Shown: positions 3,249 to 46,242, counted from the stretch's first letter. The stretch: 64,000 bases of DNA from Anaerolineae bacterium (GCA_027021705.1 JALUTT010000164.1:19310-83309), one strand, 5' to 3'. Translations and numbers: made by a program. The notes: a model not told the origin generated them from the letters alone.

Positions 3249-3259
3249 CTTATTGTCAT

Positions 3260-11635: not shown

Positions 11636-11664
11636 CGTAACGTTCTGCGGGTGAAAGGCTCTTT
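11636..11664 (+). promoter_or_regulatory. Predicted ECF sigma promoter CGTAAC-N17-CTCTTT
   Basis: Same hexamers and spacing as 46214-46242 (both read CGTAAC-N14-AGGCTCTTT) and same spacing as 45339-45367. Confidence 0.65.
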
Positions 11665-11682
11665 TCTAACGAAGTCTCTTTA

Positions 11683-11715
11683 CCCCGGCTCCGGCCGGAA
11701 ACGCCGGAGCCGGGG
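11683..11715. other. Perfect 13-bp GC hairpin in the leader of the TPR gene
   Basis: ccccggctccggc-cggaaac-gccggagccgggg. Confidence 0.8.
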
Positions 11716-11752
11716 GAGCACAAGACCTTCCTGATACCTTCACAGGCACACG

Positions 11753-12589
11753 ATGATCAACGAACTTCTGCATCCATCGAACGTCCTTGCACCGCGAGGG
11801 CCGGCGGGATGCCTGGACCGATCCCGGGTCCCGCTGGCCCACCTCTACTACTATCGCGGCTTTCTCTCCCTCAAAACCTGCCGCTACGAGACCGCCATTA
11901 GGGCCCTGCGCCGAGCCGTCGCCCTGGCCCCCCGCTGGCCGAGGCTTCGGCTGGCCTTGGGAGACGCGCTGGCTTCCCAAGGGCAGTGGCAAGCCGCCAT
12001 CGCCCAGTACGAATGGGCCGTCCTTCTGGCCCCCCATCGCCCCGACGCCTTGGCCGCCTTGGGGAGAGGGCTCCTAGTCACCGGCCGGACGGCCGAGGCC
12101 GTCCGGGTCTTCCGGCGGCTGCAAGCGATGGTGGACGAGGCGGTCCGGCACAGAGCAGGCAACCATATGGCCTCAGTGGCCTGCTGGGCACTCCAGGCCG
12201 GCGATGCCTGCCGAGAGGCGGGCCAATGGGATGCCGCCGCCGACCTCTATCGGCCCCTGACCCGCCTGCCCACCGAGACCCCTCTGCTGACAGCGATCGT
12301 GCGGGAGGCGGTGAACGAACTGAGTGATCTGTTGGCACGTCAAGGGCAATGGGAGGAACTGGCTGCGCTGGTGGAGCGGACGGCGGCGGACGATCCGCCG
12401 GCGCTGCGGGCGGTGAGGCGGGGGGACCTCTGGCGGGCCTTGGGGCAGCCTGGACGGGCTCGCGCCGAGTACACCCTGGCCATCGGCCTGGCGCAGACCG
12501 ATCCCCCGACGGGATGGGTGGCCGAGCTGGCCCGCCGGAGGCAGGAGGCCCTCACTCAACCGAAAGAAGGCGAAGGGAAAGTCCAATGA
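11753..12589 (+). CDS. Tetratricopeptide repeat protein with no signal peptide
   Basis: TPR patterns such as YETAIRALRRAVALAP, LGDALASQGQWQAAIAQYEWAVLLAP and GQPGRARAEYTLAI. Confidence 0.7.
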   Translation: MINELLHPSNVLAPRGPAGCLDRSRVPLAHLYYYRGFLSLKTCRYETAIRALRRAVALAPRWPRLRLALGDALASQGQWQAAIAQYEWAVLLAPHRPDALAALGRGLLVTGRTAEAVRVFRRLQAMVDEAVRHRAGNHMASVACWALQAGDACREAGQWDAAADLYRPLTRLPTETPLLTAIVREAVNELSDLLARQGQWEELAALVERTAADDPPALRAVRRGDLWRALGQPGRARAEYTLAIGLAQTDPPTGWVAELARRRQEALTQPKEGEGKVQ

Positions 12590-12595
12590 CAGGAT

Positions 12596-12874
12596 TTACG
12601 CGGTTAGCAACTGAGCGGTAGCTACTCTGCCCTGCACGGGAGCGGAGGCAGGCATTCCGCCGGTAATCGGTTCTCGCTGCAAGCGATCCTTGCCCTCACC
12701 GACCTTACCTAAGGTTTCTTTCGGGTGCCGGCGCAACCGCTGCAGTACGACGAAGGGGATCATTGCGAAGGCGCCGTGGGGGATCAAGGCTTGATCAACC
12801 CGACACCGGCACACCGCCAGGCCGCTGAACGGCTTGACATCGCGGAAGAGGATCTCGATGGACCAACGGCTTCG
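12596..12874 (-). mobile_element. Degenerate C-terminal fragment of an IS4-superfamily (IS701/ISH3-like) DDE transposase
   Basis: The minus strand reads RSRWSIEILFRDVKPFSGLAVCRCRVDQALIPHGAFAM, matching the RWxIExxFRxxK...GL...H motif; there is an in-frame stop just upstream. Confidence 0.75.
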
Positions 12875-12966
12875 TTTGCGCAGTCAAGTAGGGAGCGGCC
12901 ACTAGTGCCGCCCTCTACTTAGGCAGATAGGCCACAATGGGTGAAGGATGTGAATAGGAGGAACAA

Positions 12967-15588
12967 ATGCAAATCAGGAATACAGCTTACCGATGGTTGC
13001 TCATCGCGAGCAGTGTGCTCCTGTTGCTCCCGATGATGCCAAGTCGCCTAACGGTGGCTTCAACGGATCTCGCCTTCCAAACCCTCCGTTCCCTGGACAT
13101 TCTATCACCAACACAGAGTGATCCGGATTACGCCGGTCCCCATCACAGTCCCCAGAAGATCGTTATCCGTGTGACCAAGCCCGCTGACGGCTTGCAACGG
13201 AGTGATTTTACCGTCGAGGTCGGTGGAGAACCCGCCTATGTCGTCGTCGTCTGGGAGGGGAGTGATGAATACGCCCTTGAGGTCATTCCCCCCGATACAC
13301 TGGGCGCCAACGGGTTATATGACTTGATGGTCAGTGCTGCCGGTGAGAGTGACACAGAAGTCCAGGCGGTCAAATACGCCCCTGCCCAGAACGTGGATGT
13401 CGTCGTCGTCCTGGACCGGTCAGGAAGCATGTCCGGAAGCACAAACATCCCCGGCGTCAACAAACTGGAGGCTGCCAAGAAAGCAGCCATCCTCTTTGTG
13501 AACTTGATGGTGGATGGTGATAAGCTGGGGCTGGTCAGCTTCTCGACCATTGCTAAGCTGGAGTATGCCCTCACAACGGTCACAGCAGCCGTGCGCCAGG
13601 CCATTGTAGCGGCCATCACGCCCCTCTACCCCAGCGGCACGACAACCATTGGGGGCGGGCTTGAGGTCGCCCAAGACCAACTGGAGCAGTATGGCGCTGC
13701 CGACGAGCCTTGGGCTATCGTCCTGCTCTCCGACGGCCGGCACAATACGCCTCCCGATTGGTGGGATGTCCTGCCCCGTATTGAGCAGAGCAAGACCGCC
13801 GTACACACCATTGGATTGGGGACCGATGCGGATGAAGCAACAATGCTGGAGATCGCTTCACGGACCGGAGGAACCTATAGCTATGCCCCCGATGCCAGTC
13901 AACTCCAGCGCATCTACAACACCATTGCCGGGACCGTGCGCAATCAGCAGACACTGATCTCGCTGTCCGGCAACATCTCCCCCGGCGGAAACGTCACGAA
14001 AACCGTCATCGTGGATTCAACGGTGACCGAAGCGGTCTTCTCCGTGGGGTGGAACAAGGCGAGCACCCACATCCAGATGACCTTGATACGTCCCGATGGG
14101 AGCCTTCTGGACCCAACAGTAGCAGCCAGCGATCCCACCGTCCGATATGTCTCCGGTGCCACCTTTGCCTACTATCACGTGGAGCGTCCCCTGGTGGGAG
14201 AGTGGATCGTCCAGCTCAGCAGTAGCTCGACCACGCGGGCCGTTGGCGTGGCGGGGACAGACCAGGCCGATATAGATACTTACTCCCTGGTTGTGAGCGG
14301 CCAGACAAACCTGACGCTACGTCTCTACGCCGATGAGAGGACCTATCCCATCGCCGGGATCATTCGCCTCAGCGCCACGTTGGCCGATACGGAACCGATC
14401 ACCACGGCCCGCGTTGTGGGTGTTGGTACCGGACCGACGGGACACACTTACACTTTTAACCTCTATGACGATGGGGCGCACCAGGATGGGGCCGCAGCCG
14501 ATGGCGTCTATGCTGGTGCGTATCCCAAGACCTACGTCGAGGGCACCCACACCTTCGTAGTTCGGGCAGAGGGCAAGGCAACCAGCGGTGAAGCCTTCGT
14601 CCGTCAGGCCGAGATGGCTTTTAACGTCACAGGCACACCATCGTCCGACACCACGGTCAACGTCACGTTGCAGGAAGCGTGGAACTTGATTTCCTTCGAT
14701 GTAATGCCTCACGATACCGACGTAGCCACCGTGATGAACGCGATTGCCAACAATTACACGGCCGTGCTGGGCTTCGATGGCGAGGGATACAGTTACTACC
14801 CCCAACTTCCCGATACCATCAACACCCTTCAGGAGATGGATCCCTACCATGGCTACTGGATTCGGAGCACTGCCGTTGTGACGCTGCCTGTCGTTGGCCC
14901 TGAGGTGCCTGATAACACTCCCATCAGCCTACGCCCCGGATGGAACTTGGTGAGTTACCTACCCAATGCCTCAATGACCATCACCGATGCCCTCCGCTCG
15001 ATAGAGGGTCTGTACACAGCCGTTTTAGGCTATGATCAGGGTGCAATGTCCTCCTACCCGGATCTGCCCGGCTATATGAACACCCTCCACACGATGGAGC
15101 GCTTCCGGGGCTATTGGATTCATATGACTGCACCAGCTACCTTGATCTATCCCAGCGGTAACAACGCTGGGGTGATAGCTACTGCCTCCCTCCCCCCGAA
15201 CGCGCCTCAATCGGCGGCTGGTATCAATCCAACAAACCAGTGGGTCAACTTCTACGGCTTTGAGGTCCTAGTGGATGGAAAGCCGGCCCCAATCGGGACG
15301 ACGATCTCCGTCTATGATCCCGATGGTGTGAAGATCGGAGAGATGCAGATCCGCCGTGCAGGCACTTACGGCGTGCTCTCGGCCTACGCTGACGACCCGC
15401 TCACGCCGGAGGATGAGGGAGCTCTTCCGGGTGATCGGCTGACCTTCTATATCAACGGCCAGCCCGCCCTGGCGGTCGGTCCTGACCAGCCTATATGGAC
15501 AGCCCCTGGAGAACGTCATCAAGTCAACCTATGGATTGGGGCAGCGCCTTTCCGGGTCTACATCCCCCTGATCCTGCGAACTCCGTAA
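12967..15588 (+). CDS. Secreted vWA protein with a choice-of-anchor-X-like domain, two GWNL..GYWI repeats, a 'WVNFYG' domain and a VYIPLILR tail
   Basis: AGGAGG RBS; signal peptide; DRSGS MIDAS; LYDDGAHQDGAAADGVY; paralogous to the vWA part of 3..3248. Confidence 0.85.
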   Translation: MQIRNTAYRWLLIASSVLLLLPMMPSRLTVASTDLAFQTLRSLDILSPTQSDPDYAGPHHSPQKIVIRVTKPADGLQRSDFTVEVGGEPAYVVVVWEGSDEYALEVIPPDTLGANGLYDLMVSAAGESDTEVQAVKYAPAQNVDVVVVLDRSGSMSGSTNIPGVNKLEAAKKAAILFVNLMVDGDKLGLVSFSTIAKLEYALTTVTAAVRQAIVAAITPLYPSGTTTIGGGLEVAQDQLEQYGAADEPWAIVLLSDGRHNTPPDWWDVLPRIEQSKTAVHTIGLGTDADEATMLEIASRTGGTYSYAPDASQLQRIYNTIAGTVRNQQTLISLSGNISPGGNVTKTVIVDSTVTEAVFSVGWNKASTHIQMTLIRPDGSLLDPTVAASDPTVRYVSGATFAYYHVERPLVGEWIVQLSSSSTTRAVGVAGTDQADIDTYSLVVSGQTNLTLRLYADERTYPIAGIIRLSATLADTEPITTARVVGVGTGPTGHTYTFNLYDDGAHQDGAAADGVYAGAYPKTYVEGTHTFVVRAEGKATSGEAFVRQAEMAFNVTGTPSSDTTVNVTLQEAWNLISFDVMPHDTDVATVMNAIANNYTAVLGFDGEGYSYYPQLPDTINTLQEMDPYHGYWIRSTAVVTLPVVGPEVPDNTPISLRPGWNLVSYLPNASMTITDALRSIEGLYTAVLGYDQGAMSSYPDLPGYMNTLHTMERFRGYWIHMTAPATLIYPSGNNAGVIATASLPPNAPQSAAGINPTNQWVNFYGFEVLVDGKPAPIGTTISVYDPDGVKIGEMQIRRAGTYGVLSAYADDPLTPEDEGALPGDRLTFYINGQPALAVGPDQPIWTAPGERHQVNLWIGAAPFRVYIPLILRTP

Positions 15589-15631
15589 GGAGCTGGCTCG
15601 GAACGGGCAAAAGCGTGCTCTCAATCCTCAA

Positions 15632-15653
15632 GAAAGGGAGTCCGCTCTCTTTC
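15632..15653. terminator. Hairpin, probable intrinsic terminator
   Basis: gaaagggag-tccg-ctctctttc. Confidence 0.5.
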
Positions 15654-15721
15654 AAAAGCAATATCGTGTAATCACAAAGGTGCATCGAAGAATGGGAGAG
15701 AATCTACCGTAAGGAGGGAGT

Positions 15722-16606
15722 ATGACACACTGGAAGATAGGGAACGGGCTTATGCACACCGGCATCCGCATCATCACGGTGCTGGTCGTGCTCGCTGTTG
15801 GTAGCCTGTCTCCTGCCTGGGCCCGATCTGGAGCCCAGGTCAGTCCCACTACAGAGTGGGTCAACTTCTACGGAGTGAACACCACCTGGAACGGGGAGCT
15901 TGTTCCGGCAGGAACAGTAATTGCCGCCTACGATCCTCAAGGGACGTTGTGTGGTCAGTTTGTCGTCCACACGCCGGGCCGCTACGGCTTGTTGGCCTGC
16001 TACCGGGATGATCCCAATACACCCGAAGACGAAGGCGCCGAACCTGGCGATAGCATCACGTTCACGATGAATGGTCAGGCTGCGGTCCAGCTTGGTCCGG
16101 ACAGCGCTCGCTGGACCAGCAATGGCGACCTGATGCAGGTGGAGTTGAGCGCTGGAGGAGCGGCCAGTGCTCCGTCGGGTACAATCCGAGGCACGGTCTT
16201 TCTCGACGCCGATGGGGATGGCATTTATGACGCCGGAGAGGCACCCATTGCTGGCGTTACAGTCACCGCGATCTCTAATGGCGGCTTTGAAATCCCCCTG
16301 AGATCTGGAGAAGATGGTACTTTCGGTTTTGTCGGAATACACTCGGCCCACTGGACACTGCGGGTAACCGTGCCCGAGGGCTATGCTGCCAGCGGCCCAA
16401 CCCTCTACACAGACATCTGGCTCGGTGCAGGGAACTGGCAGGTCCTGGACAAGAACTTCGGTCTGGTCAGCACAGCCCCCCTCCTGCTCCCCGTCGCCGG
16501 CAGTGAATCGCAGGGGCTCACCATCGCTCTGGGGCTCCTCATCGGCGGCGGTCTGCTGGTCGGAGGGAACCTGTCCCTGAGGCGAAGGAGGCAACGGCAG
16601 GGATAG
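15722..16606 (+). CDS. Secreted 'WVNFYG' domain + SdrD-B-like domain protein with an LPVAG sortase-like anchor
   Basis: Signal peptide; GTIRGTVFLDADGDGIYDAGEAPIAGVTVT; LPVAG + hydrophobic helix + RRRRQR. Confidence 0.8.
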   Translation: MTHWKIGNGLMHTGIRIITVLVVLAVGSLSPAWARSGAQVSPTTEWVNFYGVNTTWNGELVPAGTVIAAYDPQGTLCGQFVVHTPGRYGLLACYRDDPNTPEDEGAEPGDSITFTMNGQAAVQLGPDSARWTSNGDLMQVELSAGGAASAPSGTIRGTVFLDADGDGIYDAGEAPIAGVTVTAISNGGFEIPLRSGEDGTFGFVGIHSAHWTLRVTVPEGYAASGPTLYTDIWLGAGNWQVLDKNFGLVSTAPLLLPVAGSESQGLTIALGLLIGGGLLVGGNLSLRRRRQRQG

Positions 16607-16761
16607 ACCTCAGCACAACCGACAGCGCACCTGAATGGCTGGACCTGGCAGGTCTGGACGGGGCTGCGCCTCTTGCCCAAGGCAACCAGATCACCTATGT
16701 CAGAGAAGCAGCCGCCGCAAAGACCTACCAGGTCCTTATTCGTTTACAAACGGGGGGAAGG

Positions 16762-19143: not shown

Positions 19144-19298
19144 CCTGGATTCCCCCCCCGTCCTGGAGGCCCAACATCGAGACTGCGACCTTACCTGAAA
19201 TCTAACAATCTAACAACGGGTTGGGTGTGATCCCCCCTTAGCCACGCTCAAGACGTTAAGGTGACCAAATCGCGATAGATCCGAAGGAGGGCTCGAAA

Positions 19299-22439: not shown

Positions 22440-22875
22440 AGGCTGTCACCCTCCCGCAGGTCACGCGGTGCCCGGCGACAGCGATGGTTTATCGGAGGCT
22501 GCCTATGACGCGCTTCAGACCGTGGGGGGAACCTGCGGGAGGGTTAGCTTAGCAAACGCTCAACGCTCTTGGAGGAAAGAACGATGGAGAAGAGAGGACT
22601 TCGATGGTTCGTGCTGATGGCCTTTCTGGCCGGCCTGCTGGTGGTAGGGCTTCCCGGTCGGGGGGTGGCGGCGTTGGGGGTGGGGGTGCAGTTGACGCCC
22701 CGGCCGACGGTGCCGCCGGGCACGGTGCCTCCGCCGACGCCCTGCCCGCCGACCTCGACGCCGGCGTTGGCTCCTTCACCGACGCCGACCTCGGTGGTCA
22801 TCCTGCCCGAGGCCGGGGCTGCCCCGTCCGGTCCTGGGGTCTCGCTTCTGCTCGTCCTGGGCCTGCTGGCGGTGG
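21864..22875 (+). repeat. Copy 2 of the ~1 kb duplicated cassette
   Basis: Matches 4151-5183; it lacks 27 bp that lie between ccgacgccg microhomologies in the LPEAG gene. Confidence 0.95.
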
Positions 22876-35563: not shown

Positions 35564-35646
35564 CTCTGCTGGCAACTGTAGAAGCTGCCAATTGGAGAGA
35601 TGATGGTTCTACCTGCCTCTAACCTAGAAAAAGGGGCAGGACAACC

Positions 35647-35843
35647 GCTACTCTGTTCTTACCGGTGATTACCCATAAGTGAGCAAGAGGATGGGCTGTG
35701 GTAGGCCGTCCACGAATTTCTCGCGGATACACGAATGGGGCGGCTCCTGATTCGTGTATTCGTGCCCCATTCGTGGACGGCCCATCTCCCCACCCCCAAG
35801 ATATGGGTAATCACTACTGTTCTTAAGGTAGCGAGAACGTAGC
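35647..35843. repeat. Nested palindromic element (MITE/REP-like) between convergent genes
   Basis: gtgattacccata/tatgggtaatcac, ggccgtccacgaat/attcgtggacggcc and atacacgaat/attcgtgtat arms. Confidence 0.8.
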
Positions 35844-35878
35844 CCTCGCTCACCAGCCGAAAGGCATCGAAAGAATCC

Positions 35879-38800
35879 CTACCGACCGCCTTCCTTCAAG
35901 AGCAAAGGAAGGAAGAGGACGTGTTGGAAGGGCTCCCCTCCCGACCCAGGTGACGCCAGCAAGAGGTAGGTGCCCAACGCCGTCACCGGCGCCACCACCG
36001 CTTGCTGCCCCTCGTCCAGATGGGCCGGGACCTCCACCCACGTCTGACGAACCGGGTCCCATCGGTAGAGCCCCAGGGCCTCCGGCCTCACCGACGACGT
36101 GATGAGGGCGTCGTCGTAGTGCAGCTTTAGGACCGCCGGCCGCTCCAGGCTCGCCAACGCCCCCGACGCCGTGATGTCGTAGGGATGGCCCACCGGCACC
36201 AACCCCTGAGGTGGCGGCCCCGGCACCGCCCCCGGCGGCGTGATCACCACGTAGGCTCCATCGCCCGGCAGGCTGCCGGACGCCAGGTGCAAACTCAGGT
36301 TCCCATCGTTGGCGTAGAGGTCCCAGCTTCGATCCCCGGTCACCCGATGCAGCCGGTAGGTGGCCTGCAACCAGACCAGCCGCTCACCCACACTCCCCAC
36401 TGCCCGAATGCGCCCCATCCCCCGCGCCGTGGCCTCCAGAGAGACGGCCCCGCTATAGATGCCCGTGGCAGGGCTGTAGGCCAGGGTGGGAACATAACCG
36501 GTCTCCCCGCCCGGCTCCGTGATGACAACGGTGGGGTCTGCGTCGGGGCCAAAGCCGAGCAGGAAGATCAGCAAGTCAATCCGGTCGGGGTCCTGGCCCG
36601 GCTCGGCCACCACCCGCAGGTGGGGGATCGAACCGGTGCTCTGGACTGCCGAACCGGTCACCGGGGCCATCGTCAGGTTGAGGGTCATCGCCGTTCCCAC
36701 GGTGACGCTCCCCGCCAGCCCCCCGTCGAAAGAGGCAGCCCGCAACGTGTCTCCTGCAATGGCCCCGTAGACCGCCAGGCGGCCATTGCCGTCGGTGAAC
36801 CCCTGGCCGATAACCCGCCCATCCTGTTTGTAGAGGGCGACGATGGCCCCCCAGTAAGGCCCTTGGGGACCGTAGACGGTCAACTGACGAGGAGGGGGTG
36901 AGGGACCTTCTTGATGGACCTGGACCAGGGGCCACGCCGGCAGGCTGGATGGCATCCCCTCGGGCCCGGCCACGACACCTCCCCGATCGGCCGGGGTTGC
37001 GAGCCGCCAGCGCGGTGGGTCTTGGACGTCCCCGTACATCCGGCCCAGCGTCTCCCAATCCGACTCGCCGCGAAGCTGCCATTGAGCCGTATTCTCGCAC
37101 CGGTCAGACCAGAGGCCGGGAACGCCCCGCATCGCCAGTTCGCTGCTGGTGTAGTGGTAATCCATCGCACTGGCGTTGGTCGCATCGGTAGCGGGATTGC
37201 GGTTCTCCGGTCCGGTGCAAGAGGCCGGCACCTCACCGATCAGATTCCCGTCCTGGTCGAACAAGTAAGCAAAGTACTCATCGTACAGGTAGAGGGCGTA
37301 GTGGCCAAACTCATGGGCCAGGGTACGGTAGCCTTCGGGCCGGTCCCACGCTCCCTGGTTGCTGCTGTGACCATCCCACCCCCGGCCTATCCGAATGACG
37401 TGGGACCTATCATCGGAGGTGATGCCCCCCACGTAAGCGTGGGGCCGGACGACGTTCTTGGTCGCCACCTGCACATCGGCCTCCGCCCAGTAAGCCCCAT
37501 CGTCGTAGAGCGCCACCTGTCCCAAAGCCATCTGCCCATCGGTGAGGTCGTAGAGGTAGTCGGAGGCGTAGCGGACCGCCCGGGCGATCTCGTCCAGGTA
37601 GGCTTGGGTAGCATCCCATTCGATGGAGACGAGCAAATTGAAGAGGATGAGAGGGTGGCTCTCCCGAAGGACCAGTCGCTGCTCGCCGGAACCGCTGACG
37701 ACGAAGGGACGAGCGCTGCCGTCGGTATCCCAGATCAGGCTGGTCCGATAGACGCGGTAGGCCCAGCCCCCGTGGCCGGCCCGGGCCGTGGGTTGCTCCG
37801 CTTGGAGGGCCAGGGCGACCAGCGTGGTCCCCATATCCAGCGGACCGGCGTTGAGCAACCCGGCCCGGTCGGTGGTCCCAACGGCCTCGCCATCGGCATA
37901 GACCGTGGCCCCGGCGACGGGATTGCCCCCCTCATCCACCACCCGAATGAACCAGGGAGCCGCCACCCGGAAGGGAGGACTCTTGCCGTCCTGGGCAGGC
38001 CATAGGATAGGACCAAGGCGGTAACCAGGCTGAGCCCGGATGCGGAAGACCACGTTGTCGCTCTTGATCAGGTCCGCGCCGGCGTCCCAGACAAAGAGAT
38101 GCGACGTTCCCTCAGGCGAGGCAGAAAGCGCCGTCGTCCCATCGCCGCCGGGACCAGGCGTGGCCGGGAACCACGCCCCCCCACCGTTGGGCGAGAACTC
38201 CGGGAAGATGCGGGCGACAGGATCCCCCTCGGGATCGAAGAGGGTGTACAGAATCGAGACCTGGGTTTGGGTGATGATGTGGGGAGTTGGAGCGAGGGGC
38301 GCGTCGTGAGTGGGCCCAGGGCGGGGGATGACCACGTAAGGGGGATCGTTCACCGACGGAGCAGGGGTCCGTCGGGGGTTCCGGTAGAGCAGATTCCGGC
38401 TGACACTGCTCACCGCCAGGTCCAGGTCCCCATCGCCATCGTAATCCCCCCAAGCCAGGCCGGGGGTGCTATCGGCCTCGGCCGAGGACCAGACAGCCTC
38501 GGTCGCCAGCACCCCTCCGTCGTTGCGGTAGAGCCGGTTGGGCTGGCGATGGTTGCCCGCAACCAGATCCAGGTCCCCGTCGCCGTCATAATCCCCCCAG
38601 GCCAGGGCCGAGGTCCGATCCGACTCGTCCGAGGACCAGACCGCGCTGGTGGTCAGGACACCGTCGTCATTGCGGTAGAGCCGGTTGGGCTGCCCCGTCG
38701 CCGTCCCGTTGCCCACCGCCAGGTCCAGGTCTCCATCGCCGTCGTAGTCCCCCCATGAGAGGCTGGTGGTGTTGTCCTCCTCGGCCGAGGACCAGACGGC

Positions 38801-40606
38801 TTCGGACGTCAGCACGCCGCCGTCGTTGCGGTAGAGCCGGTTGGATTGGCCGGCGAAGTCCGGTCGCCCGTTGCCCACCGCCAGGTCCAGGTCCCCATCG
38901 CCGTCGTAATCCCCCCAGGCAACGCTGCGGGTGGTGTCGGCCTCGTCGGAGGACCAGACCGCGCCGGTGGTCAGGACACCGTCGTCGTTGCGGTAGAGCC
39001 GGTTGGGCTGACCGTCGTTGCCCACGACCAGGTCCAGGTCCCCGTCGCCGTCGTAATCCCCCCAGGCGACGCTGCGGGTAGCGTCGGCCTCGTCGGAGGA
39101 CCAGACCGCGCCGGTGGTCAGAACGCCGCCGTCATTGCGGTAGAGCCGGTTGGGTTGGCCGTCGTTGCCTACGGCCAAGTCCAGGTCCCCGTCGCCGTCG
39201 TAATCCCCCCAGGCGACGCTGCGGGTAGCGTCGGCCTCGTCGGAGGACCAGACCGCGCCGGTGGTCAGGACACCGTCGTCATTGCGGTAGAGCCGGTTGG
39301 GCTGCCCATCGTTGCCCACGACCAGGTCCAGGTCCCCGTCACCGTCGTAATCCCCCCAGGCCAAGCCGGAAGAAGGCTCCTCCTCGGCCGAGGTCCAAAC
39401 CGGGCCGTCCAACACCACGCCGTCGTTGCGGTAGAGCCGGTTGGGCTGATTGAGGTTTCCTACCGCGATGTCCAAGTCTCCATCGTTATCGTAGTCCCCC
39501 CAGGCCACCCCTATCGTGTAGTCCACCTCGGCTGAGGTCCAGATGGCCTCGGCCGTCAACACACCACCGTCGTTGCGATAGATTCGGTTGGGCACCCCCC
39601 CGTGGGAACCGCCTCCCGTCAGCAGGTCCAGATCACCATCAGCATCGTAGTCCCCCCAGGCCACGCTCCAGATCAGATCCTGCTCGACAGAAGACCAGAC
39701 GGCCCCGGTCGTCAGCATCCCACCGTCGTTGCGGTAGAGCCGATGGGGGGCCAGGCCGTTGCCGGCGACCAGGTCCAGGTCCCCGTCGCCGTCGTAGTCC
39801 CCCCAGCCGGCGTCGGTCGTGGGGTCCGACTCATCCGAGGACCAGACGGCGCTGGCCGTTAGCACACCGCCATCGTTGCGGTGGAGTTCGTTCACGCCGT
39901 TGCGCCCTACGGCCAGGTCCAGGTCTCCATCGTTGTCGTAGTCGCCCCAGAGCACGACGGACACGGGGTCCACGTCTGCCGAGGACCAGACCGCGCCGGT
40001 CGTCAAGGTTCCCCCATCGTTGCGATAGAGCTGGATCGGCTGTCCCCCGTTCCCGACGGCCAGGTCCAGGTCCCCGTCGCCGTCGTAGTCCCCCCAGGCA
40101 ACGCTGCGGGTGGTGTCGGCCTCCTCGGAGGACCAGACCGCGCCAGTGGTCAGGACGCCGCCGTCGTTGCGGTAGAGCCGGTTAGGCTGACCCTCGTTGC
40201 CCACCGCCAGGTCTAGGTCCCCGTCGCCGTCGTAATCCCCCCAGGCAACGCTGCGGGTGGTGTCGGCCTCCTCGGAGGTCCAAACGGCCACCGTGGTCAG
40301 CACGCCATGATCGTTGCGGTACAGGTGGTTGGGGCCGTTGTTGCCCACGACCAGGTCCAGGTCTCCGTCGTTGTCGTAGTCCCCCCAGGCTATGCTCCTG
40401 GTCACGGCCGCCTCTGTGGACACCCAGGCCGACGTGAAGGCAGGCGGGTCGGTCTGGGCCGCAAGGCGCCGATGGGGAGACAACAAGGGCAGAAGAAGGA
40501 TCGAGAGGGTGAGCCAGAGGCCAACGTTCCTCCGGCGATTGCCTTCAGAGGTGATGGCCGGCGGGGTGGCCGGTCTACTGCCGGATGAGAGAGGTCTATC
40601 GGACAT
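35879..40606 (-). CDS. Secreted FG-GAP/VCBS-repeat protein (14 repeats) with a CLCA-like Zn-metalloprotease domain, a GAIN/ZU5-like domain and an LFLPLLLK tail
   Basis: 14 x WGDYDxDGDLD; HEFGHYALYLYDEY; signal peptide. Confidence 0.85.
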   Translation of the reverse strand: MSDRPLSSGSRPATPPAITSEGNRRRNVGLWLTLSILLLPLLSPHRRLAAQTDPPAFTSAWVSTEAAVTRSIAWGDYDNDGDLDLVVGNNGPNHLYRNDHGVLTTVAVWTSEEADTTRSVAWGDYDGDGDLDLAVGNEGQPNRLYRNDGGVLTTGAVWSSEEADTTRSVAWGDYDGDGDLDLAVGNGGQPIQLYRNDGGTLTTGAVWSSADVDPVSVVLWGDYDNDGDLDLAVGRNGVNELHRNDGGVLTASAVWSSDESDPTTDAGWGDYDGDGDLDLVAGNGLAPHRLYRNDGGMLTTGAVWSSVEQDLIWSVAWGDYDADGDLDLLTGGGSHGGVPNRIYRNDGGVLTAEAIWTSAEVDYTIGVAWGDYDNDGDLDIAVGNLNQPNRLYRNDGVVLDGPVWTSAEEEPSSGLAWGDYDGDGDLDLVVGNDGQPNRLYRNDDGVLTTGAVWSSDEADATRSVAWGDYDGDGDLDLAVGNDGQPNRLYRNDGGVLTTGAVWSSDEADATRSVAWGDYDGDGDLDLVVGNDGQPNRLYRNDDGVLTTGAVWSSDEADTTRSVAWGDYDGDGDLDLAVGNGRPDFAGQSNRLYRNDGGVLTSEAVWSSAEEDNTTSLSWGDYDGDGDLDLAVGNGTATGQPNRLYRNDDGVLTTSAVWSSDESDRTSALAWGDYDGDGDLDLVAGNHRQPNRLYRNDGGVLATEAVWSSAEADSTPGLAWGDYDGDGDLDLAVSSVSRNLLYRNPRRTPAPSVNDPPYVVIPRPGPTHDAPLAPTPHIITQTQVSILYTLFDPEGDPVARIFPEFSPNGGGAWFPATPGPGGDGTTALSASPEGTSHLFVWDAGADLIKSDNVVFRIRAQPGYRLGPILWPAQDGKSPPFRVAAPWFIRVVDEGGNPVAGATVYADGEAVGTTDRAGLLNAGPLDMGTTLVALALQAEQPTARAGHGGWAYRVYRTSLIWDTDGSARPFVVSGSGEQRLVLRESHPLILFNLLVSIEWDATQAYLDEIARAVRYASDYLYDLTDGQMALGQVALYDDGAYWAEADVQVATKNVVRPHAYVGGITSDDRSHVIRIGRGWDGHSSNQGAWDRPEGYRTLAHEFGHYALYLYDEYFAYLFDQDGNLIGEVPASCTGPENRNPATDATNASAMDYHYTSSELAMRGVPGLWSDRCENTAQWQLRGESDWETLGRMYGDVQDPPRWRLATPADRGGVVAGPEGMPSSLPAWPLVQVHQEGPSPPPRQLTVYGPQGPYWGAIVALYKQDGRVIGQGFTDGNGRLAVYGAIAGDTLRAASFDGGLAGSVTVGTAMTLNLTMAPVTGSAVQSTGSIPHLRVVAEPGQDPDRIDLLIFLLGFGPDADPTVVITEPGGETGYVPTLAYSPATGIYSGAVSLEATARGMGRIRAVGSVGERLVWLQATYRLHRVTGDRSWDLYANDGNLSLHLASGSLPGDGAYVVITPPGAVPGPPPQGLVPVGHPYDITASGALASLERPAVLKLHYDDALITSSVRPEALGLYRWDPVRQTWVEVPAHLDEGQQAVVAPVTALGTYLLLASPGSGGEPFQHVLFLPLLLKEGGR

Positions 40607-40627
40607 CGGCGGTCTCCCTTCTTGCGC

Positions 40628-41911
40628 TCACCGGAGCACCACCGGCAGGTAGACCTGGTACGCTGCCACCTGCCAGCTCAGTTCCCAGAGGTCGAGGCGC
40701 GGTGTCGCGCCGGCCACCGTTGAGGAGAACGTAGCCCGTAGCCGGAGGGCAGGGTATTGGTGAGGATCGAGATGGCTAAGGTGGGTCCTGCTGACAACGT
40801 GGGTCAACAGCACCGTGCCGTTCAGGTCCAAGAGGTCCACCGTCAGCGTCGCGGTGGGAGGGCTCACCACGGCGGTGAAAGTCAAGCTCCCCCAGGCGGC
40901 TATCGCCATCGAGGGGGTGATGGGCTGCGAGAGGATGGTTCCCTCCCCCGGCGTGTTCGCCAGGACCACCCCCTGCTCGTCTGGAGATCCGCCGAGGGTC
41001 ACGTTGGCGCTCCCCGCCGGGTCAAGACCGCTGAAATCGTCGAAGTCGTCCCGCCACACCGGGGTGCTCATCAGAGCGTAGGTGGTGAAGCGCGACGTGG
41101 CGACTGTGAGATAGCGCTGCGCGGAGAAGAGCCGCCCTCCCAACCTCTCCCAGCGTCGGTGGAAGGCATCCCAGGCGAAGATGGCCAAGGTATGCGGGTC
41201 GGCGCCGGCCAACGTTGTCTCGTCGTAGTAAAACCGCAAGTCCATCGGCCTGTTGGTCACGAGGAGGGCACCGGCAGCCCGCACACTGTAGGGGCTGCCC
41301 ACAAGGCGGTGGCCGGGAGGAGGCGGACCGGGAGGCGCGAAACCGGGCACGATGACCACGTAGGTATCGGCAGGAAGGGTATCCGTGCCGACCAGGGTCA
41401 GTTGCAGGTTGCCATCCACGGAACGGATCGTCTGGAGGGTCGAGGCAGGCACGTAAGCCCGGTAGAAGTCCACCGTCCCCGTATCCAGGCCCGTCGTCGT
41501 GGTGATGCTCAGCGGTCCCGAGGCCCCGGTTCCCGGCGTGAAGCCCGGCGCCGTCGTGGTGTAGAGCTGGTCGGTATCCGAGTAGACCATCGTGTACGAA
41601 TCCTTGTCGTGGCCGGGACCGATGCCCACGTTAAGGAATACATCCCCATCCAGCTTCCCCACGCCTCCCGCCTTGATGAAAAGCGCCGTCCCATCCTGGC
41701 TGGGCACAACGTCGAGGAAGGGAGCGAGGGCAGATGCTTGCTGCTTCAAAGGAGGGGCACCACCTGTCGGTTCCGGGGCCGGCACCTGCCCGGCCACTGG
41801 CCTGACCGCGCTTTTGGCGGTAGAATAGAGGGTAGCCCCGGTCATCAAGAGGAGGCCGAGCAACAAGGTGATCAACCGCGTGTAACCGTTGGGACGATGC
41901 TTAGAGATCAT
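40628..41911 (-). CDS. Secreted protein sharing a ~220-aa module with the C-terminus of the downstream FG-GAP protein; VYLPVVLR tail
   Basis: ATG 41911 follows AGGAG; signal peptide; DGNLQL...YVVI.P...PGPPP.G...VG.PY is shared with 35879..40606. Confidence 0.8.
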   Translation of the reverse strand: MISKHRPNGYTRLITLLLGLLLMTGATLYSTAKSAVRPVAGQVPAPEPTGGAPPLKQQASALAPFLDVVPSQDGTALFIKAGGVGKLDGDVFLNVGIGPGHDKDSYTMVYSDTDQLYTTTAPGFTPGTGASGPLSITTTTGLDTGTVDFYRAYVPASTLQTIRSVDGNLQLTLVGTDTLPADTYVVIVPGFAPPGPPPPGHRLVGSPYSVRAAGALLVTNRPMDLRFYYDETTLAGADPHTLAIFAWDAFHRRWERLGGRLFSAQRYLTVATSRFTTYALMSTPVWRDDFDDFSGLDPAGSANVTLGGSPDEQGVVLANTPGEGTILSQPITPSMAIAAWGSLTFTAVVSPPTATLTVDLLDLNGTVLLTHVVSRTHLSHLDPHQYPALRLRATFSSTVAGATPRLDLWELSWQVAAYQVYLPVVLR

Positions 41912-42000
41912 CTTTCTACTCCTACGGGGATGACGACCGTTCCTCACCCCTTTCCCCGGCCGGGGCGCGTCCTGAGCCATCCATAGGAGAGGACACGCCG

Positions 42001-44346
42001 ATGCCAACCCCAGCAGAGGAACCAGGACGAGGCCTGATCAACGCCTTCTTCACCGCTCTTAACACCCGCCACTTGGATCGGTGTGAGGCCGCTTTAGACC
42101 AACTCGAAGCTTTGGCCCGTCATCAGCCGGCCTATGCCCCTTGGTGCACCTACCTCCGAGGCATCCTGATCAACGAACGGGACTGCGACTGGGCCGAGGC
42201 CGAGGCGATCTTCAGCCGTCTATTGGAGACAGACCTGGAGCCTGCGTTGCACGGTCGGGTGCTCCTGGCTCTGGGGCGGTCGTACCAGTACCAAGGCCGT
42301 TGGCAGGAAGCCCTCCACACCTATGAAGCTGCCGTTTCCCTCTTCATCGAGCTCAACCGACCTGTTGACCAAGCTAAGGCGTGGAAACAGATGGCGATTT
42401 GCTGCCGACGCGGGTTCACTCAGGGCGACTTCAACGCGGCTGCCCTGGACCAAGGGATCACCTACTGTCGGCGGGCTTTGGACCTGCTGGAGGCCATTGA
42501 AGCGCCTTCACCGAGCGTGGTCTGGCTGATCGGTTCCGTGTGGAACACCCTGGGGCTCATCCACCGGAGCCTGCGCCAATGGGATGAGGCCATCGCCTGC
42601 TATCAACGGGACCTGGCCCTCTGCCGCTCTCTAGGCGACCGCCTGGGCGAAGGACTCTCTTACGGCAACCTGGGCGAGGTCTACCAGAGGCGTGGGCCGG
42701 ATACTTGGCCCCAGGCTCTGGATGCCTACCGGCAGGCCCTGGCAATCATCCGAGAGTTCGATGATCGCTACGAAGAGATTGAAGTCCTGGCCAATCTAGG
42801 CTCCCTGCACCGGGAAATGGGGAAGCCGGTACGGGCCTTGGAGCACTATGACCGGGCCATCGGCCTGATTGAAGCGCTGCGGGCTGGTGCTTCATCGGAG
42901 GAAGCCCGCGCCGGGTTTCTGGCGACAACGGTAGATGTCTACGCCAACACCGTGTTGCTCTGCCTAGAGATGGAGCGAGGTGATCAGGCTTTCGATTACG
43001 GGGAACGGGCCCGGTCACGGGCTTTCCTCGACGTCCTGGTGTCTCACTCGCCGGCCCTCGCCCGCCGGATGGTGGCGGTGCCGACAACGCTGGCCCAGGT
43101 CCAGGCAGCCCTCCCCCCCGATGCCTTGCTGTTGGAGTACTTTACCACCGGTCTGGTGGAAGCCCAGGATCGCCGGCCGGCCTCGTCCCATCGCCAGGTC
43201 TACCGCCACCGCTTCCCCCCGGCCCGGACGCTGATCTTCGCCATCACCCGACAGGGCTTCTGGGTCCACGACACGGGCCTCTCTCCCAACGACCTGCTTC
43301 CCCGCCGGCTCGACAGCGTCGTAGAGCGGCATTTCTTGAAGCCAGAACTCCGGCGTCGGCTATACGATCATCTCATCGCTCCGGTGGAACCGCTCCTCCG
43401 AGGCCGGCGTCGGCTCTACCTGGTCCCCCACGGTCCCCTCCACTACATCCCCTTCCAGGCTCTCATCGCTCCCGACGGAGATACGCTACTGCGGGAAGGA
43501 GGTCCCTCGTTCGTCTACGCCCCCAGCGCGACCTTTCTCCTCCATAGCCGGCAGCGAACGGAAGGAGCCGCGCCTGCCCCTCTCTTGGCACTGGGCTACA
43601 ATGGACAGGACCGGATGGCCCTGCGCTTTGCAGAAGCGGAAGCCCAGCGTGTTGCCCAGGTCACCGGAGGGCGAGCTCTGATCGGCCCTACGCCCAAGAA
43701 GGCAATCCTCTATCGGGAAGCAGCCGGTCACCAGGTGCTCCACATCTCCTGCCACGGTGAGTTCGACCCCGATCTCCCCCTGGCCTCTGCCCTCTACCTA
43801 GGCCCCGGAGAGACCCTGACGGCGATGGAAGTGCTAGAGCACCTTCGTCTGCGCTGTGATTTGGTGGTTCTGAGCGCCTGTGAGAGCGGTCTCAGTCGGG
43901 TGCGCCGGGGAGATGAGTTGATCGGCCTGACGCGGGCCTTTTTCTACGCAGGCACTTCGGCATTGCTTTCCACCCTGTGGCGAGTGGACGAACGCTCAAC
44001 CCTGATCCTGATGGAGCAGTTCTACCAGGGCCTGCAGGCCGGGCTGGGCTTTGCCGACGCTCTCAGCCGGGCTCAGCTCTACCTGAAGAGCCTGTCCCGG
44101 CGCGAAGCTTCGAAGCTCCTAGAGCGCTTCCTGCTGGAGGACTCCGCCTCAGCTTGGCCGACCCTTTTCGAGGTCTTGCGCCGGCCCCAGACCCATCCCA
44201 AGGGATGGGCAGAATCGGCGATGGACGAGCAGACCGGGCTGGGATGGGCGAGGAGGCACGAGGAACGCCCCTTTGCCGATCCGTACCACTGGGCTCCTTT
44301 CATCCTTACAGGAGATCGCACCCTGTTAGGAGTAGAGGTGAGGTGA
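42001..44346 (+). CDS. TPR + CHAT (caspase HetF associated with TPRs) cysteine protease
   Basis: N-terminal TPRs; ERARSRAFLD; LVPHGPLHYIPF; catalytic HISCHG and VLSACESG; PYHWAPFIL. Confidence 0.92.
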   Translation: MPTPAEEPGRGLINAFFTALNTRHLDRCEAALDQLEALARHQPAYAPWCTYLRGILINERDCDWAEAEAIFSRLLETDLEPALHGRVLLALGRSYQYQGRWQEALHTYEAAVSLFIELNRPVDQAKAWKQMAICCRRGFTQGDFNAAALDQGITYCRRALDLLEAIEAPSPSVVWLIGSVWNTLGLIHRSLRQWDEAIACYQRDLALCRSLGDRLGEGLSYGNLGEVYQRRGPDTWPQALDAYRQALAIIREFDDRYEEIEVLANLGSLHREMGKPVRALEHYDRAIGLIEALRAGASSEEARAGFLATTVDVYANTVLLCLEMERGDQAFDYGERARSRAFLDVLVSHSPALARRMVAVPTTLAQVQAALPPDALLLEYFTTGLVEAQDRRPASSHRQVYRHRFPPARTLIFAITRQGFWVHDTGLSPNDLLPRRLDSVVERHFLKPELRRRLYDHLIAPVEPLLRGRRRLYLVPHGPLHYIPFQALIAPDGDTLLREGGPSFVYAPSATFLLHSRQRTEGAAPAPLLALGYNGQDRMALRFAEAEAQRVAQVTGGRALIGPTPKKAILYREAAGHQVLHISCHGEFDPDLPLASALYLGPGETLTAMEVLEHLRLRCDLVVLSACESGLSRVRRGDELIGLTRAFFYAGTSALLSTLWRVDERSTLILMEQFYQGLQAGLGFADALSRAQLYLKSLSRREASKLLERFLLEDSASAWPTLFEVLRRPQTHPKGWAESAMDEQTGLGWARRHEERPFADPYHWAPFILTGDRTLLGVEVR

Positions 44347-44475
44347 GGTTGACAGAAGGGATGGGGGCTACTGTGATCCCACGCTCCGCGCGGGGACTTT
44401 CCCGTTCTCTAGCTGAAGAGGAGAAGATGGACAGTGGATCCCCAATCCTTACTCTTACGGTAACCACCGCGAGAG

Positions 44476-45315
44476 TCAGGACCGGGGTGTGATCTCGAGG
44501 GCAAGATAGGCCAAGTCGTCTCTGAGGACCCGCTCGAAAAGCACCAGGCCGAAAGCGTCGGTCTGTCGAATTCCTAGAATCGTTTTCCCCCGCCTAAGAG
44601 CCACCGTTGTACCTGCCAGATAAGGCCATCCCCCTTTGCTGGGAATGTTGACCTCGACGGTCAGTGTGCAGTAAGCCGAATCAGCCTGTTCTGCCTCGGC
44701 TGTGACCGTGACTTCCATATCCTCAACAGCCTCTTTCAGGGAAAACTGCCACAGGATGTTGGGGGCCCTGTTGGACTTCAGGCCGGCAGCGTAAGCTGGC
44801 TGATAGGCCGATGACTGCAAAGCGCGAAGCAGTTCCGACGAAAACTCGATGACCAAGCGTCCCAGAGCATCTTGATACCAAGCTCTGCCGCCCTCTGGAG
44901 GTTCCTTGGTCAACTCCGCTTGGAGAAAGGGCAGTTTGGGCTCTGGGTAATGGGGAGGCTCCCTCTCCTCCTCGCCGTAAGCCAAATCGAGCATCTCTAG
45001 GAGCGCTACGTATTCCGCCGAGCAGTAAGGGCAGGTCTCCAGGTGAACTGCAACCGGATGCCACCGGGCTTCCTCTGCCTGTCCCCTCGTCTCCGCCTGA
45101 AGGTACTCGGGCAACAGTGCCTGACATGCCTGACAAGTCAACAGGTCTTCCTCATCCATCGCCAGGGCTCGGAGAAACTGTTCCATTCTACGCTCGCAGC
45201 GGGGACAAGTGCTTACGTGGTGGACAATGGCATCCAGCACAGTAGGATCACGGTTCGGATCTTTCAAGTAGGTCAGTAGCCCTTCGATGACTGTACGGCA
45301 TCCTGCCGTCTGCAT
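44476..45315 (-). CDS. Soluble anti-sigma factor-like protein with two zf-HC2 (ZAS) motifs and a C-terminal beta-sandwich
   Basis: HVSTCPRC and CQACQALLPEYL...HLETCPYC; no TM segment; directly downstream of an ECF sigma gene. Confidence 0.8.
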   Translation of the reverse strand: MQTAGCRTVIEGLLTYLKDPNRDPTVLDAIVHHVSTCPRCERRMEQFLRALAMDEEDLLTCQACQALLPEYLQAETRGQAEEARWHPVAVHLETCPYCSAEYVALLEMLDLAYGEEEREPPHYPEPKLPFLQAELTKEPPEGGRAWYQDALGRLVIEFSSELLRALQSSAYQPAYAAGLKSNRAPNILWQFSLKEAVEDMEVTVTAEAEQADSAYCTLTVEVNIPSKGGWPYLAGTTVALRRGKTILGIRQTDAFGLVLFERVLRDDLAYLALEITPRS

Positions 45316-45338
45316 AGACTTTCCCCTTCGTCACAAGT

Positions 45339-45367
45339 AAAGAGTAAGCTAACCCTGGAATATTACA
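45339..45367 (-). promoter_or_regulatory. Predicted ECF promoter TGTAAT-N17-CTCTTT upstream of the anti-sigma gene
   Basis: Minus strand reads tgtaat-attccagggttagctta-ctcttt, 23 nt before ATG 45315. Confidence 0.65.
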
Positions 45368-45388
45368 ACGCAAGGATGGGTATTGCGT

Positions 45389-46117
45389 TCACAATGCTCC
45401 TGGCGCAAAATACTCCCTTAACGCCTTGTCCTCTCGCAGTCGTGCGATGCCCCGATGCCGAAGCACCCGGACATGGCCGGCTGTGATCCCCAGTCGGTCT
45501 CCAATCGCCTCATCGCTCAGCCCGCCGAAGAATTTCAGCACGATCACCTCTCGCTGCCGTTCATCGGGCAAGCGATGAAGAGCCTCGATCAGGACCTGCG
45601 CTCGTTCTCGCCGATCCAGACTGGCAGATGGAGACGGAACACCGCCTTCGGCAATGGGCTCCAGTGCGGAGCTGTGATCTCTTGCCCGCTGCTCCTGCTG
45701 GAAAGCATGGCGCAACTTGTTCAGGGCGAAAGCCAGGAATGCGCCAGGACTCCGGCAACGGTCTATCTGCTCGTAAATAAGGACCAGAGCCCGTTGGGTC
45801 ACGTCCTCGGCCAACTCCGGCCACCGGTTGTAGGCAACCCGGAACAAGAAGCGGAACAATTCGCGGTATCCCTGCTCCCGTCGGTCCGGCCTTTCCGCCT
45901 GCAGGCAAGCCTCATAGAGCACAAGGGTGTACTGATGTTTGACCAGCCGTTTCAGCTCGGTCGGCGATGCGACCGATGAAGCGGAGTCAAGCACCCTCTC
46001 CACCAGGACATCGGCGGGCAGCAAGCGCCAGCCGTACTGCGCCATCAAATCCTGCACAATGCCCAGGCAGGTCTGATAGGCGGTCACCTCCCCTGTTAAG
46101 CCCGTCTCGCGCCTCAT
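45389..46117 (-). CDS. ECF-type sigma-70 factor with an N-terminal extension
   Basis: Region 2 LAEDVTQRALVLIY..F; region 4 LPDERQREVIVLKFFGGLSDEAIGDRLGITAGHVRVLRHRG; ATG 46117 follows GAGGAGG. Confidence 0.9.
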   Translation of the reverse strand: MRRETGLTGEVTAYQTCLGIVQDLMAQYGWRLLPADVLVERVLDSASSVASPTELKRLVKHQYTLVLYEACLQAERPDRREQGYRELFRFLFRVAYNRWPELAEDVTQRALVLIYEQIDRCRSPGAFLAFALNKLRHAFQQEQRARDHSSALEPIAEGGVPSPSASLDRRERAQVLIEALHRLPDERQREVIVLKFFGGLSDEAIGDRLGITAGHVRVLRHRGIARLREDKALREYFAPGAL

Positions 46118-46144
46118 TCCCCCCTCCTCAACGGTGGCTGTTCT

Positions 46145-46153
46145 ATTATAGCA
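46145..46153 (-). promoter_or_regulatory. Extended -10 (TGCTATAAT) housekeeping promoter for the ECF sigma gene
   Basis: Plus strand attatagca, 28 nt upstream of the start codon. Confidence 0.65.
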
Positions 46154-46213
46154 CACTTGTGGGGTAGTTGGAAGCCCCCAATGGCCCCCTGCAGAAGACC
46201 ATCTCCGAATCTC

Positions 46214-46242
46214 CGTAACATCTCCCCAGGGAGAGGCTCTTT
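46214..46242 (+). promoter_or_regulatory. Predicted ECF promoter CGTAAC-N17-CTCTTT, divergent from the sigma gene
   Basis: cgtaac-atctccccagggagagg-ctcttt. Confidence 0.65.

Follow-up and report, generated by a model that had tools for sequence, protein, structure and literature searches.

A predicted ECF sigma factor promoter ahead of a candidate anti-sigma gene in uncultured Anaerolineae

We analysed a stretch of 64,000 nucleotides from an Anaerolineae bacterium (GCA_027021705.1, JALUTT010000164.1:19310-83309; hereafter the window), which encodes an extracytoplasmic function (ECF)-type sigma factor and carries three copies of the bipartite motif YGTAAY-N17-CTCTTT. Sequence comparison leads us to propose, with a probability of about 0.75, that GTAAY-N17-CTCTT(W) is the target promoter of this sigma factor. 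A motif of the form GTAAY-N17-CTC(C/T)T stands just ahead of the gene downstream of sigma, which encodes a candidate anti-sigma factor, in 24/24 orthologous loci holding that region; a first-pass annotation, made from the window's sequence alone, had suggested homologous sigma loci as the place to look for it. The conservation, positions and statistics of the motif and the domain content of the surrounding proteins were observed directly, and from them we infer that the sigma factor reads the motif, as well as the transcription start sites, the anti-sigma activity and the input signal.

Conservation of the motif at orthologous sigma loci

The window corresponds to positions 19310-83309 of contig C164 in assembly G000 (5,190,633 bases in 183 contigs, 66% G+C). 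An exact pattern search returned the three copies listed in Table 1, each with a 17-nt spacer. The coordinates, strands and spacers given by the first-pass annotation all proved correct on re-reading, and the intergenic position that it assigned to every copy was borne out by an open reading frame (ORF) map and by crude gene calls. No match was obtained in dinucleotide-preserving shuffles of the window (0/100), and the whole assembly holds five matches on both strands, three of them inside the window. The shuffle count alone overstates the significance of the motif, because the pattern was defined post hoc from the same three sites; tests independent of these sites were provided by orthologous loci and by a matrix built from foreign sites.

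Homologues of the sigma factor were sought in 41 genomes (G000 and 40 relatives). A close one was found in only one other genome, the same-family G001 (59% identity), while nine further matches were at most 36% identical. In G001 an exact GTAAY-N17-CTCTTT lies between sigma and the next gene, 24 nt from the latter's ATG, and a second exact copy, divergent and upstream of sigma, adjoins a TGgTATAAT box. Scanning one genome per species added four orthologous loci, labelled Anaerolineae or Chloroflexia, with sigma factors 50-57% identical; L015-L017 carry the motif ahead of the downstream gene, and L018 has GTAAT-N17-CTCCTA there. Searching metagenomes with the sigma alignment yielded 73 loci, 21 of them at 50% identity or more, one being the window's own contig. 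In the 20 foreign loci (∼76 kb) GTAAY-N17-CTC[CT]T matched 31 times: 18 matches were in sense orientation, 27-71 nt beyond the sigma match, and accounted for 18/18 loci containing that region, and 13 lay on the opposite strand, 72-398 nt ahead of the sigma match. No match fell outside these two positions in the 20 loci. The divergent copy was found in 12 of the 15 metagenome loci with at least 250 nt of upstream sequence and also in L014, L015 and L017; that a divergent transcript might arise from the motif had been an early suggestion, and this copy is indeed common across orthologous loci.

When 16 sigma/anti-sigma spacers, picked by position only, were aligned with MAFFT, only TGTAA, CTC and a single T did not vary at all; beyond these, the start-codon region alone was nearly invariant. 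Because there was no gap between the two blocks, the spacer is fixed at 17 nt. The motif is thus a phylogenetic footprint, and this gives strong support to its reading as a promoter. Removal of duplicates left 18 + 14 = 32 non-redundant foreign sites, with the consensus tGTAAYgTTTnG ... gCTCTTWtat. The element is thus bipartite and asymmetric, with a GTAAY -35, a 17-nt spacer in every site and a location at a sigma locus, as in an ECF-type promoter; its -10 is CTCTT, not a CGT-type element.

In one clade (L072 at ∼1128, L073, L076, L080 and L086) the anti-sigma frame seems to open at an ATG 4-5 nt past the -10 hexamer, the usual ATG being altered (e.g. to AAG in L072). The anti-sigma mRNA of this clade would thus appear to be leaderless, starting where the promoter model predicts.

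Could something other than this sigma factor read the motif? Other readers, such as a different alternative sigma factor or an asymmetric DNA-binding protein controlling the anti-sigma and divergent genes, are improbable: the motif accompanies orthologues of this sigma factor in 24 loci and occurs almost nowhere else in each relative's genome, and its AAC-type -35, its rigid 17-nt spacer, its strict orientation towards a start codon 19-42 nt downstream and its lack of dyad symmetry are promoter-like. What such a reader has in its favour is that the link between sigma and motif is drawn from sequence, that the -10 half is atypical for an ECF factor, and that the sigma gene does not itself carry the motif, while positive autoregulation is described for most ECF sigma factors. 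A further point for the sigma factor as reader comes from the ECF54 group, which has the same CHAT/TPR context and, in the available part of its description, a similar predicted motif, GTATCAG/CTCC (PMC7826278).

Alternatively, the copies could be remnants of repeats or mobile elements, or terminator-like hairpins, without promoter function. The spacer of the site at 46214 does form a hairpin of 5 bp with a T-rich run after it, flagged by a terminator scan, and a separate repeat family lies 100 nt downstream of it. But no + strand gene ends ahead of 46214, the spacers are unrelated and only the half-sites are conserved, the genome holds just five copies, Rfam is empty, and the orthologous positions are retained at 50-65% protein identity, which makes this explanation very improbable. 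Rfam gave no match in the window at the gathering threshold and none in loci L014-L018 at E <= 0.1, so the divergent transcripts do not belong to a known RNA family.

The sigma factor, its promoter and a candidate anti-sigma factor

The sigma protein matches Sigma70_r2 (24.4 bits, cut-off 24) and Sigma70_r4 (42.6 bits), separated by a linker of ∼28 residues, and scores 74.1 bits against the TIGR02937 sigma70-ECF model (cut-off 42.9); the nearest solved chains are SigW and SigE. With regions 2 and 4 only, no region 3 and a score above the family cut-off, it belongs to the ECF (group 4) sigma factors. Its N-terminal extension was judged from an alignment of six orthologues. The longest ORF (45389-46156, -) opens at a GTG at 46156, which we disfavour as the start; the ATG at 46117, behind GAGGAGGGGGG, is most likely the start, judging by the sequence, because a TGcTATAAT box (46145-46153, -) sits inside the longer frame.

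The first-pass annotation had held that sigma is made from a housekeeping TGnTATAAT promoter, and comparison across loci agrees with it. Most orthologous loci have a TGnTATAAT-like box, or in one clade a TTGCnn-N17-TATCAT box, 30-60 nt upstream of sigma, and a sense-orientation motif upstream of sigma was seen in 0/26 loci (the window, 5 genome loci and 20 metagenome loci). The sense target promoter that would mark positive autoregulation is thus missing from these loci, and a sigma-70-type promoter occupies its place. Because the sigma gene has such a promoter and never the sense motif, the feedback wiring is read as negative.

The motif had also been placed ahead of the gene for the sigma factor's anti-sigma, and the features of the downstream protein are in keeping with that assignment. 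It contains the motifs C6..H33xxxC37xxC40 and C61..H91xxxC95xxC98, all of whose Cys and His columns are invariant in 7 orthologues; each has the HxxxCxxC and upstream Cys of zinc anti-sigma (ZAS) proteins, and helices span residues 4-51 and 61-115 in an AlphaFold2 model (mean predicted local distance difference test score, pLDDT, 67.9) that ends in the beta-sandwich. No Pfam family matched the protein above threshold. A model of sigma in complex with residues 1-135 of the candidate scored 0.67, against 0.34 for the best control; the mark used was reached by 116/157 solved complexes and by 2/215 mismatched pairs, although a pass may reflect likeness, because solved sigma/anti-sigma complexes exist. 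The runs shared at least 75% of contacts, with a partner pLDDT of at least 78, and in the model sigma region 4 is contacted by the first HxxxCxxC module and region 2 by the second. No transmembrane-like segment (Kyte-Doolittle (KD) 19-residue window of at least 1.6) was found in the anti-sigma candidate, sigma, the TPR-CHAT protein or the TPR protein. Taken together, the motifs and the modelled contacts make the downstream protein a candidate anti-sigma factor for the neighbouring sigma factor.

Table 1. Positions of the predicted promoters and of the genes around them, counted from the first base of the window.
Feature	Position	Strand	Basis or remark
P(anti), predicted ECF-type promoter, TGTAAT-N17-CTCTTT	45339..45367	-	exact match; 23 nt from its end to the anti-sigma ATG
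P(div), predicted ECF-type promoter, CGTAAC-N17-CTCTTT	46214..46242	+	exact match; back-to-back with the sigma gene's own promoter
P(TPR), third ECF-type promoter candidate, CGTAAC-N17-CTCTTT	11636..11664	+	exact match; TPR gene 88 nt downstream
ECF-type sigma factor, 242 aa, regions 2 and 4, conserved N-terminal extension of ∼75 aa	45389..46117	-	Pfam, TIGR02937
Sigma-70-type promoter of the sigma gene, TTCCAA-N17-TATAAT with TGn extension	46145..46173	-	read from sequence
Anti-sigma candidate, 279 aa, soluble, C-terminal beta-sandwich	44476..45315	-	two tandem zinc-anti-sigma-like motifs
TPR-CHAT caspase-like protein, 781 aa, no signal peptide or transmembrane segment	42001..44346	+	Pfam CHAT 5.3e-57; maximum KD(19) 1.46
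TPR protein, 278 aa, soluble, in surface-protein island	11753..12589	+	Pfam TPR families; no transmembrane-like window
G+C-rich hairpin, ∼13 bp stem, in predicted 5' leader of the TPR transcript	11683..11716	+	fold
Two membrane Ser/Thr protein kinases	46663-48660, 48674-51409	+	Pkinase 1e-45, 9.4e-49; one transmembrane segment each
Sigma-70-like promoter ahead of the kinases, TTGAAA-N17-TACAAT with TG	46463..46491	+	consensus scan, 10/12 matches

Genome-wide occurrence and the distant site

Two matrices, one built from 9 foreign sites and the other from the 32 non-redundant foreign sites, were scored on the whole G000 genome. The first ranked the window's three sites 2nd, 4th and 7th genome-wide. 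At a score of at least 20 it gave 7 hits, whereas 20 local-composition shuffles averaged 1.3 (maximum 3); a comparison with shuffled sequence had been called for by the first-pass annotation. With the 32-site matrix the five best positions were the anti-sigma site (25.9), the TPR site (23.4), C36:7844 (22.2), the divergent site (18.8) and C73:80385 (18.7). Promoter-like positions, 4.2% of all strand positions, were defined from crude gene calls on G000 (3602 genes, 84% coding) as non-coding with a co-oriented start 10-300 nt downstream; among them a score of 16 or more was reached only by the anti-sigma and TPR sites.

Three other candidates were set aside as targets. At C36:7844 (C36:7817-7845, -) a tandem TGTAATGTACCC repeat mimics the motif; downstream of it come a sigma-70 promoter (TTGACA-N17-TATACT), a hairpin with a T-run that resembles an attenuator, and a gene, pyrB, for an aspartate carbamoyltransferase-like protein, and the repeat may be a regulator site of this pyrimidine operon. 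Around C73:80385 the sequence is A+T-rich and no clear gene follows, and C91:1015 is antisense within a gene.

The third copy lies among genes for large surface proteins: bases 1-35,563 encode VWA, LVIVD, SBBP, DUF11, CARDB and PKD proteins, all on the + strand, with the TPR gene among them. The proposal that this TPR gene, ∼34 kb away, is a target of the sigma factor gained support from the scans, and judging from sequence P(TPR) probably drives the gene as part of the sigma regulon. By the foreign-only matrix the site is second in 5.19 Mb; it occupies a promoter-like position, and in 60 local shuffles promoter-like positions scored 23.4 or more on average 0.017 times per shuffle, with any such match in 1/60. 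Its extended -35, GTAACGTTyTG, is as in foreign anti-sigma sites, e.g. that of L082. No sigma-70-type promoter was predicted in 11400-13100, which leaves P(TPR) as the sole predicted promoter-like element in the spacer and the TPR gene without another predicted promoter.

Given this rank and position, it seems rather unlikely that the motif is real at the sigma locus while the site at 11636 is a chance match, with a local regulon and no link to the island, although several observations are compatible with that account. In 5 relatives only generic TPR matches were found and no orthologue of the TPR gene, which gives its site no footprint to be judged by; the motif in these relatives is nearly limited to the sigma locus, at which 2-3 of 1-7 genome-wide pattern matches fall; and shuffled genomes reached a score of 22 or more, at any position, 0.20 times on average. 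Moreover, the 13-bp hairpin directly after the site could be merely the terminator of the upstream gene. The fold of 11670-11760 has an energy of -38.2 kcal/mol (z = -3.68), with 0/200 shuffles equally stable, and the hairpin may end the transcript of the upstream LVIVD gene, act at the 5' end of the TPR transcript as a stabiliser or attenuator, or do both. The TPR protein and the TPR part of the CHAT protein are 25% identical, a generic similarity only.

While we favour P(TPR) as a genuine target promoter, the broader claim that the motif ties the CHAT module to the adhesin island is not supported in that form: the connection involves one cytoplasmic TPR gene, and scanning promoter-like positions with the 32-site matrix found no motif at other island genes. 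A VWA gene lies 378 nt downstream of the TPR gene. Control of adhesin or large surface-protein genes by the sigma factor is not supported.

A number of observations weigh against reading the motif as the target promoter of this sigma factor, with the partner and targets proposed here. Many of the loci are mutually related and hence not independent, and the training sites were chosen with a pattern derived from the motif of the first-pass annotation. A CGT core is typical of many ECF -10 elements, and CTCTT is without it. Of the 15 metagenome loci with 250 nt or more upstream, L070, L072 and L081 lack the divergent copy, which in L016 and L018 lies 1.1-2.6 kb away; in G000 it scores only 18.8, and a score of at least 18 was reached 1.27 times per shuffled genome. 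No gene stands within 420 nt of P(div), the two kinase genes at that distance being the first downstream, and these do not need P(div), because they have a sigma-70-like promoter of their own. P(TPR) is without a conservation test, because its gene lacks an orthologue in the 5 relatives. As for the candidate anti-sigma factor, its match to RsrA is weak (4.5e-5, 23.5 bits against a cut-off of 62.5), the zf-HC2 matches of its orthologues are sub-threshold (the best, in L018, 21.0 against 22.2 bits), a profile search of the PDB gave RsiW at E = 0.34 and nothing significant, and the best Foldseek match in the PDB was ChrR (E = 0.014, probability 0.33), with none at E <= 0.001. Finally, the loose pattern and its reversed control gave counts of 3/4 in G001, 7/10 in G041, 2/5 in G042, 4/1 in G043 and 1/0 in G044. 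Because the pattern is not enriched in these five relatives, we rejected a large regulon and regard the evidence as positional, not numerical; the regulon is very small, with about three promoters.

In G043, a third exact copy (L061 1501-1528, +; G043:C5:384750) lies ∼4 kb from the sigma locus, 66 nt ahead of an ORF of at least 478 aa that looks helical-repeat-like, as judged by eye only. Judging from this copy, each genome seems to have acquired an additional target of its own.

Neighbouring genes, proposed mechanism and related systems

The gene behind the divergent promoter varies among loci. In L014 (5528-6226, +), L069, L075 and L079 it encodes a class III adenylate/guanylate cyclase-like protein (mutually 60-65% identical), and in other loci lipoprotein-like ORFs follow the divergent copy. 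A cyclase orthologue in G000 was sought and rejected, the best match being only 35% identical; the kinase genes occupy that place instead. Between P(div) and the kinases' own promoter sits a member of a ∼100-nt repeat family, AGAAAAACTGCGRGAAACTACGG ... GAAAAACTGCGAGAAACTGCGGAG, found at 46335-46440 (+) in the window and at C24:21877-22277 (+), C108:18787-19197 (-) and C176:2797-3198 (+). Each copy has a -10-like box upstream (TATTAC, TGTATC or TATTAT), and none matches Rfam; the family could be a set of small RNA genes or an array of regulator binding sites.

On the other side of the module, the TPR-CHAT gene is convergent with the anti-sigma candidate gene. The two adjoin in the window, in L014, L015, L017 and L018 (4/4 genome loci with sequence there) and in 8/9 metagenome loci tested, and the CHAT protein retains His and Cys in HISCHG and LSACESG contexts, as judged by eye. 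A large FG-GAP repeat protein (35879-40606, -) adjoins the sigma/anti-sigma/CHAT module in the window, and in locus L076 an FG-GAP repeat protein (1869-3329, +) replaces the CHAT gene. The ORF between the FG-GAP and CHAT genes (40628-42007, -; 459 aa) has no Pfam or NCBIfam match.

These observations can be assembled into a mechanism. The sigma gene would be transcribed from its sigma-70-type promoter, and a sigma-dependent promoter in the 73-nt gap between the sigma and anti-sigma genes would drive the anti-sigma gene alone, with a predicted leader of ∼15-17 nt. The putative anti-sigma factor would be soluble and hold sigma through its two HxxxCxxC modules, which would bind region 4 and region 2, respectively. 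Once sigma is released, the level of its own inhibitor would rise, a negative feedback expected to give a pulse-like or self-limiting response. Transcription from the second copy would run away from sigma into a variable target, namely the cyclase gene in four relatives and lipoprotein genes in others; in the window a leader of 420 nt would precede the two kinase genes. The third copy, 34 kb off, probably drives the cytoplasmic TPR gene. The input is probably cytoplasmic: the Cys/His motifs may respond through thiol or zinc chemistry, the neighbouring TPR-CHAT protein may act by cleavage, or both may apply; a thiol or zinc input is suggested by the tandem Cys/His sites, and proteolysis by the conserved TPR-CHAT gene.

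In canonical ECF operons, such as B. subtilis sigW-rsiW and R. sphaeroides rpoE-chrR, the target promoter lies upstream of sigma and provides positive feedback and co-expression. The locus described here shares with them a group 4 sigma factor, an adjacent anti-sigma gene and a bipartite promoter with an AAC-containing -35 at its own locus, but here the promoter always stands between sigma and anti-sigma. To our knowledge, wiring in which feedback reaches the inhibitor only has been documented experimentally mainly in C. glutamicum, whose SigH consensus, GGAA-N-GTT, is unlike the motif here. As described in the available part of PMC3489674, the sigH-rshA locus of that organism has four housekeeping promoters, a SigH-dependent promoter drives rshA only, and a quick shut-off has been proposed. 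A housekeeping-transcribed ECF sigma factor, a sigma-dependent promoter for the anti-sigma gene alone and a soluble Cys/His anti-sigma factor are common to the two systems, and because the arrangement is the same we suggest a self-limiting switch with about three outputs. The systems differ in that one belongs to Chloroflexota (Anaerolineae) and the other to Actinobacteria, that a TPR-CHAT gene is conserved alongside here, that the anti-sigma candidate here has two HxxxCxxC modules and a beta-sandwich, and that about three promoters contrast with 61 putative transcription units upregulated on rshA deletion (PMC3489674, available part).

ECF54 may be the nearest described group, compared by its description in the available part of PMC7826278; a closer group may exist. 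Its members are 100% actinobacterial, with a carboxypeptidase-regulatory-like protein at position +1, subtilase, CHAT and TPR neighbours and no recognised anti-sigma factor, and its predicted promoter is GTATCAG (-35) / CTCC (-10) (PMC7826278). Proteolytic control has been proposed for this group in a review (PMC8999054, available part). As in ECF54, CHAT and TPR proteins are conserved beside the sigma factor here too, and the predicted GTATCAG/CTCC resembles, but does not equal, GTAAC(G)/CTCTT. In contrast, the close relatives here are Anaerolineae or Chloroflexia, the +1 protein carries two anti-sigma-like motifs, and no subtilase was found among the window ORFs or the locus ORFs scanned. 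A CarboxypepD_reg match was obtained only in orthologue L017 (25.5 bits against a cut-off of 32.3), while the window protein has a modelled beta-sandwich.

In the DdvS-DdvA system of M. xanthus, according to the available part of PMC11506125, a zinc-bound anti-sigma domain is fused through the membrane to a periplasmic TPR-CHAT part, and the system controls a CBASS/CRISPR defence island. A TPR-CHAT caspase-like domain is likewise part of the switch proposed here. However, the anti-sigma and TPR-CHAT proteins are encoded by separate genes here, both without a transmembrane segment, and the arrangement is thus not of the DdvA type; nor were defence genes seen here. No description of a Chloroflexi ECF factor with this motif was found in a literature search or in the available parts of the ECF re-classification supplement. 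In summary, the wiring is uncommon but documented, and the tandem-ZAS anti-sigma and cytoplasmic TPR-CHAT partners are uncharacterised.

The analysis provides a concrete predicted promoter, tGTAAYgTTT-N-CTCTTW with a 17-nt spacer, for an uncharacterised ECF clade of uncultured Anaerolineae, and describes across more than 20 loci a conserved arrangement in which feedback would act on the inhibitor only, without positive autoregulation. For sigma factors found alongside a cytoplasmic TPR-CHAT protein it suggests a soluble tandem-ZAS protein as the partner, which bears on the regulation of ECF54-like 'orphan' sigma factors, and the sigma/anti-sigma/promoter trio might be tried out as an orthogonal expression switch. 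We tentatively raise the further possibility, which we hold to be well short of an even chance, that this is a wholly cytoplasmic, protease-gated (or thiol-sensing) ECF switch, a Chloroflexota counterpart of the uncharacterised actinobacterial ECF54 that acts as a self-resetting pulse generator. If so, the anti-sigma candidate would be cleaved by the soluble TPR-CHAT protein, or its zinc sites would detect thiol stress, and the conserved outputs of the freed sigma factor would be limited to its inhibitor and a single adjacent gene for signalling or the envelope (a cyclase, kinase or lipoprotein). The +1 beta-sandwich protein conserved in ECF54 would then be the 'missing' anti-sigma factor of that group.

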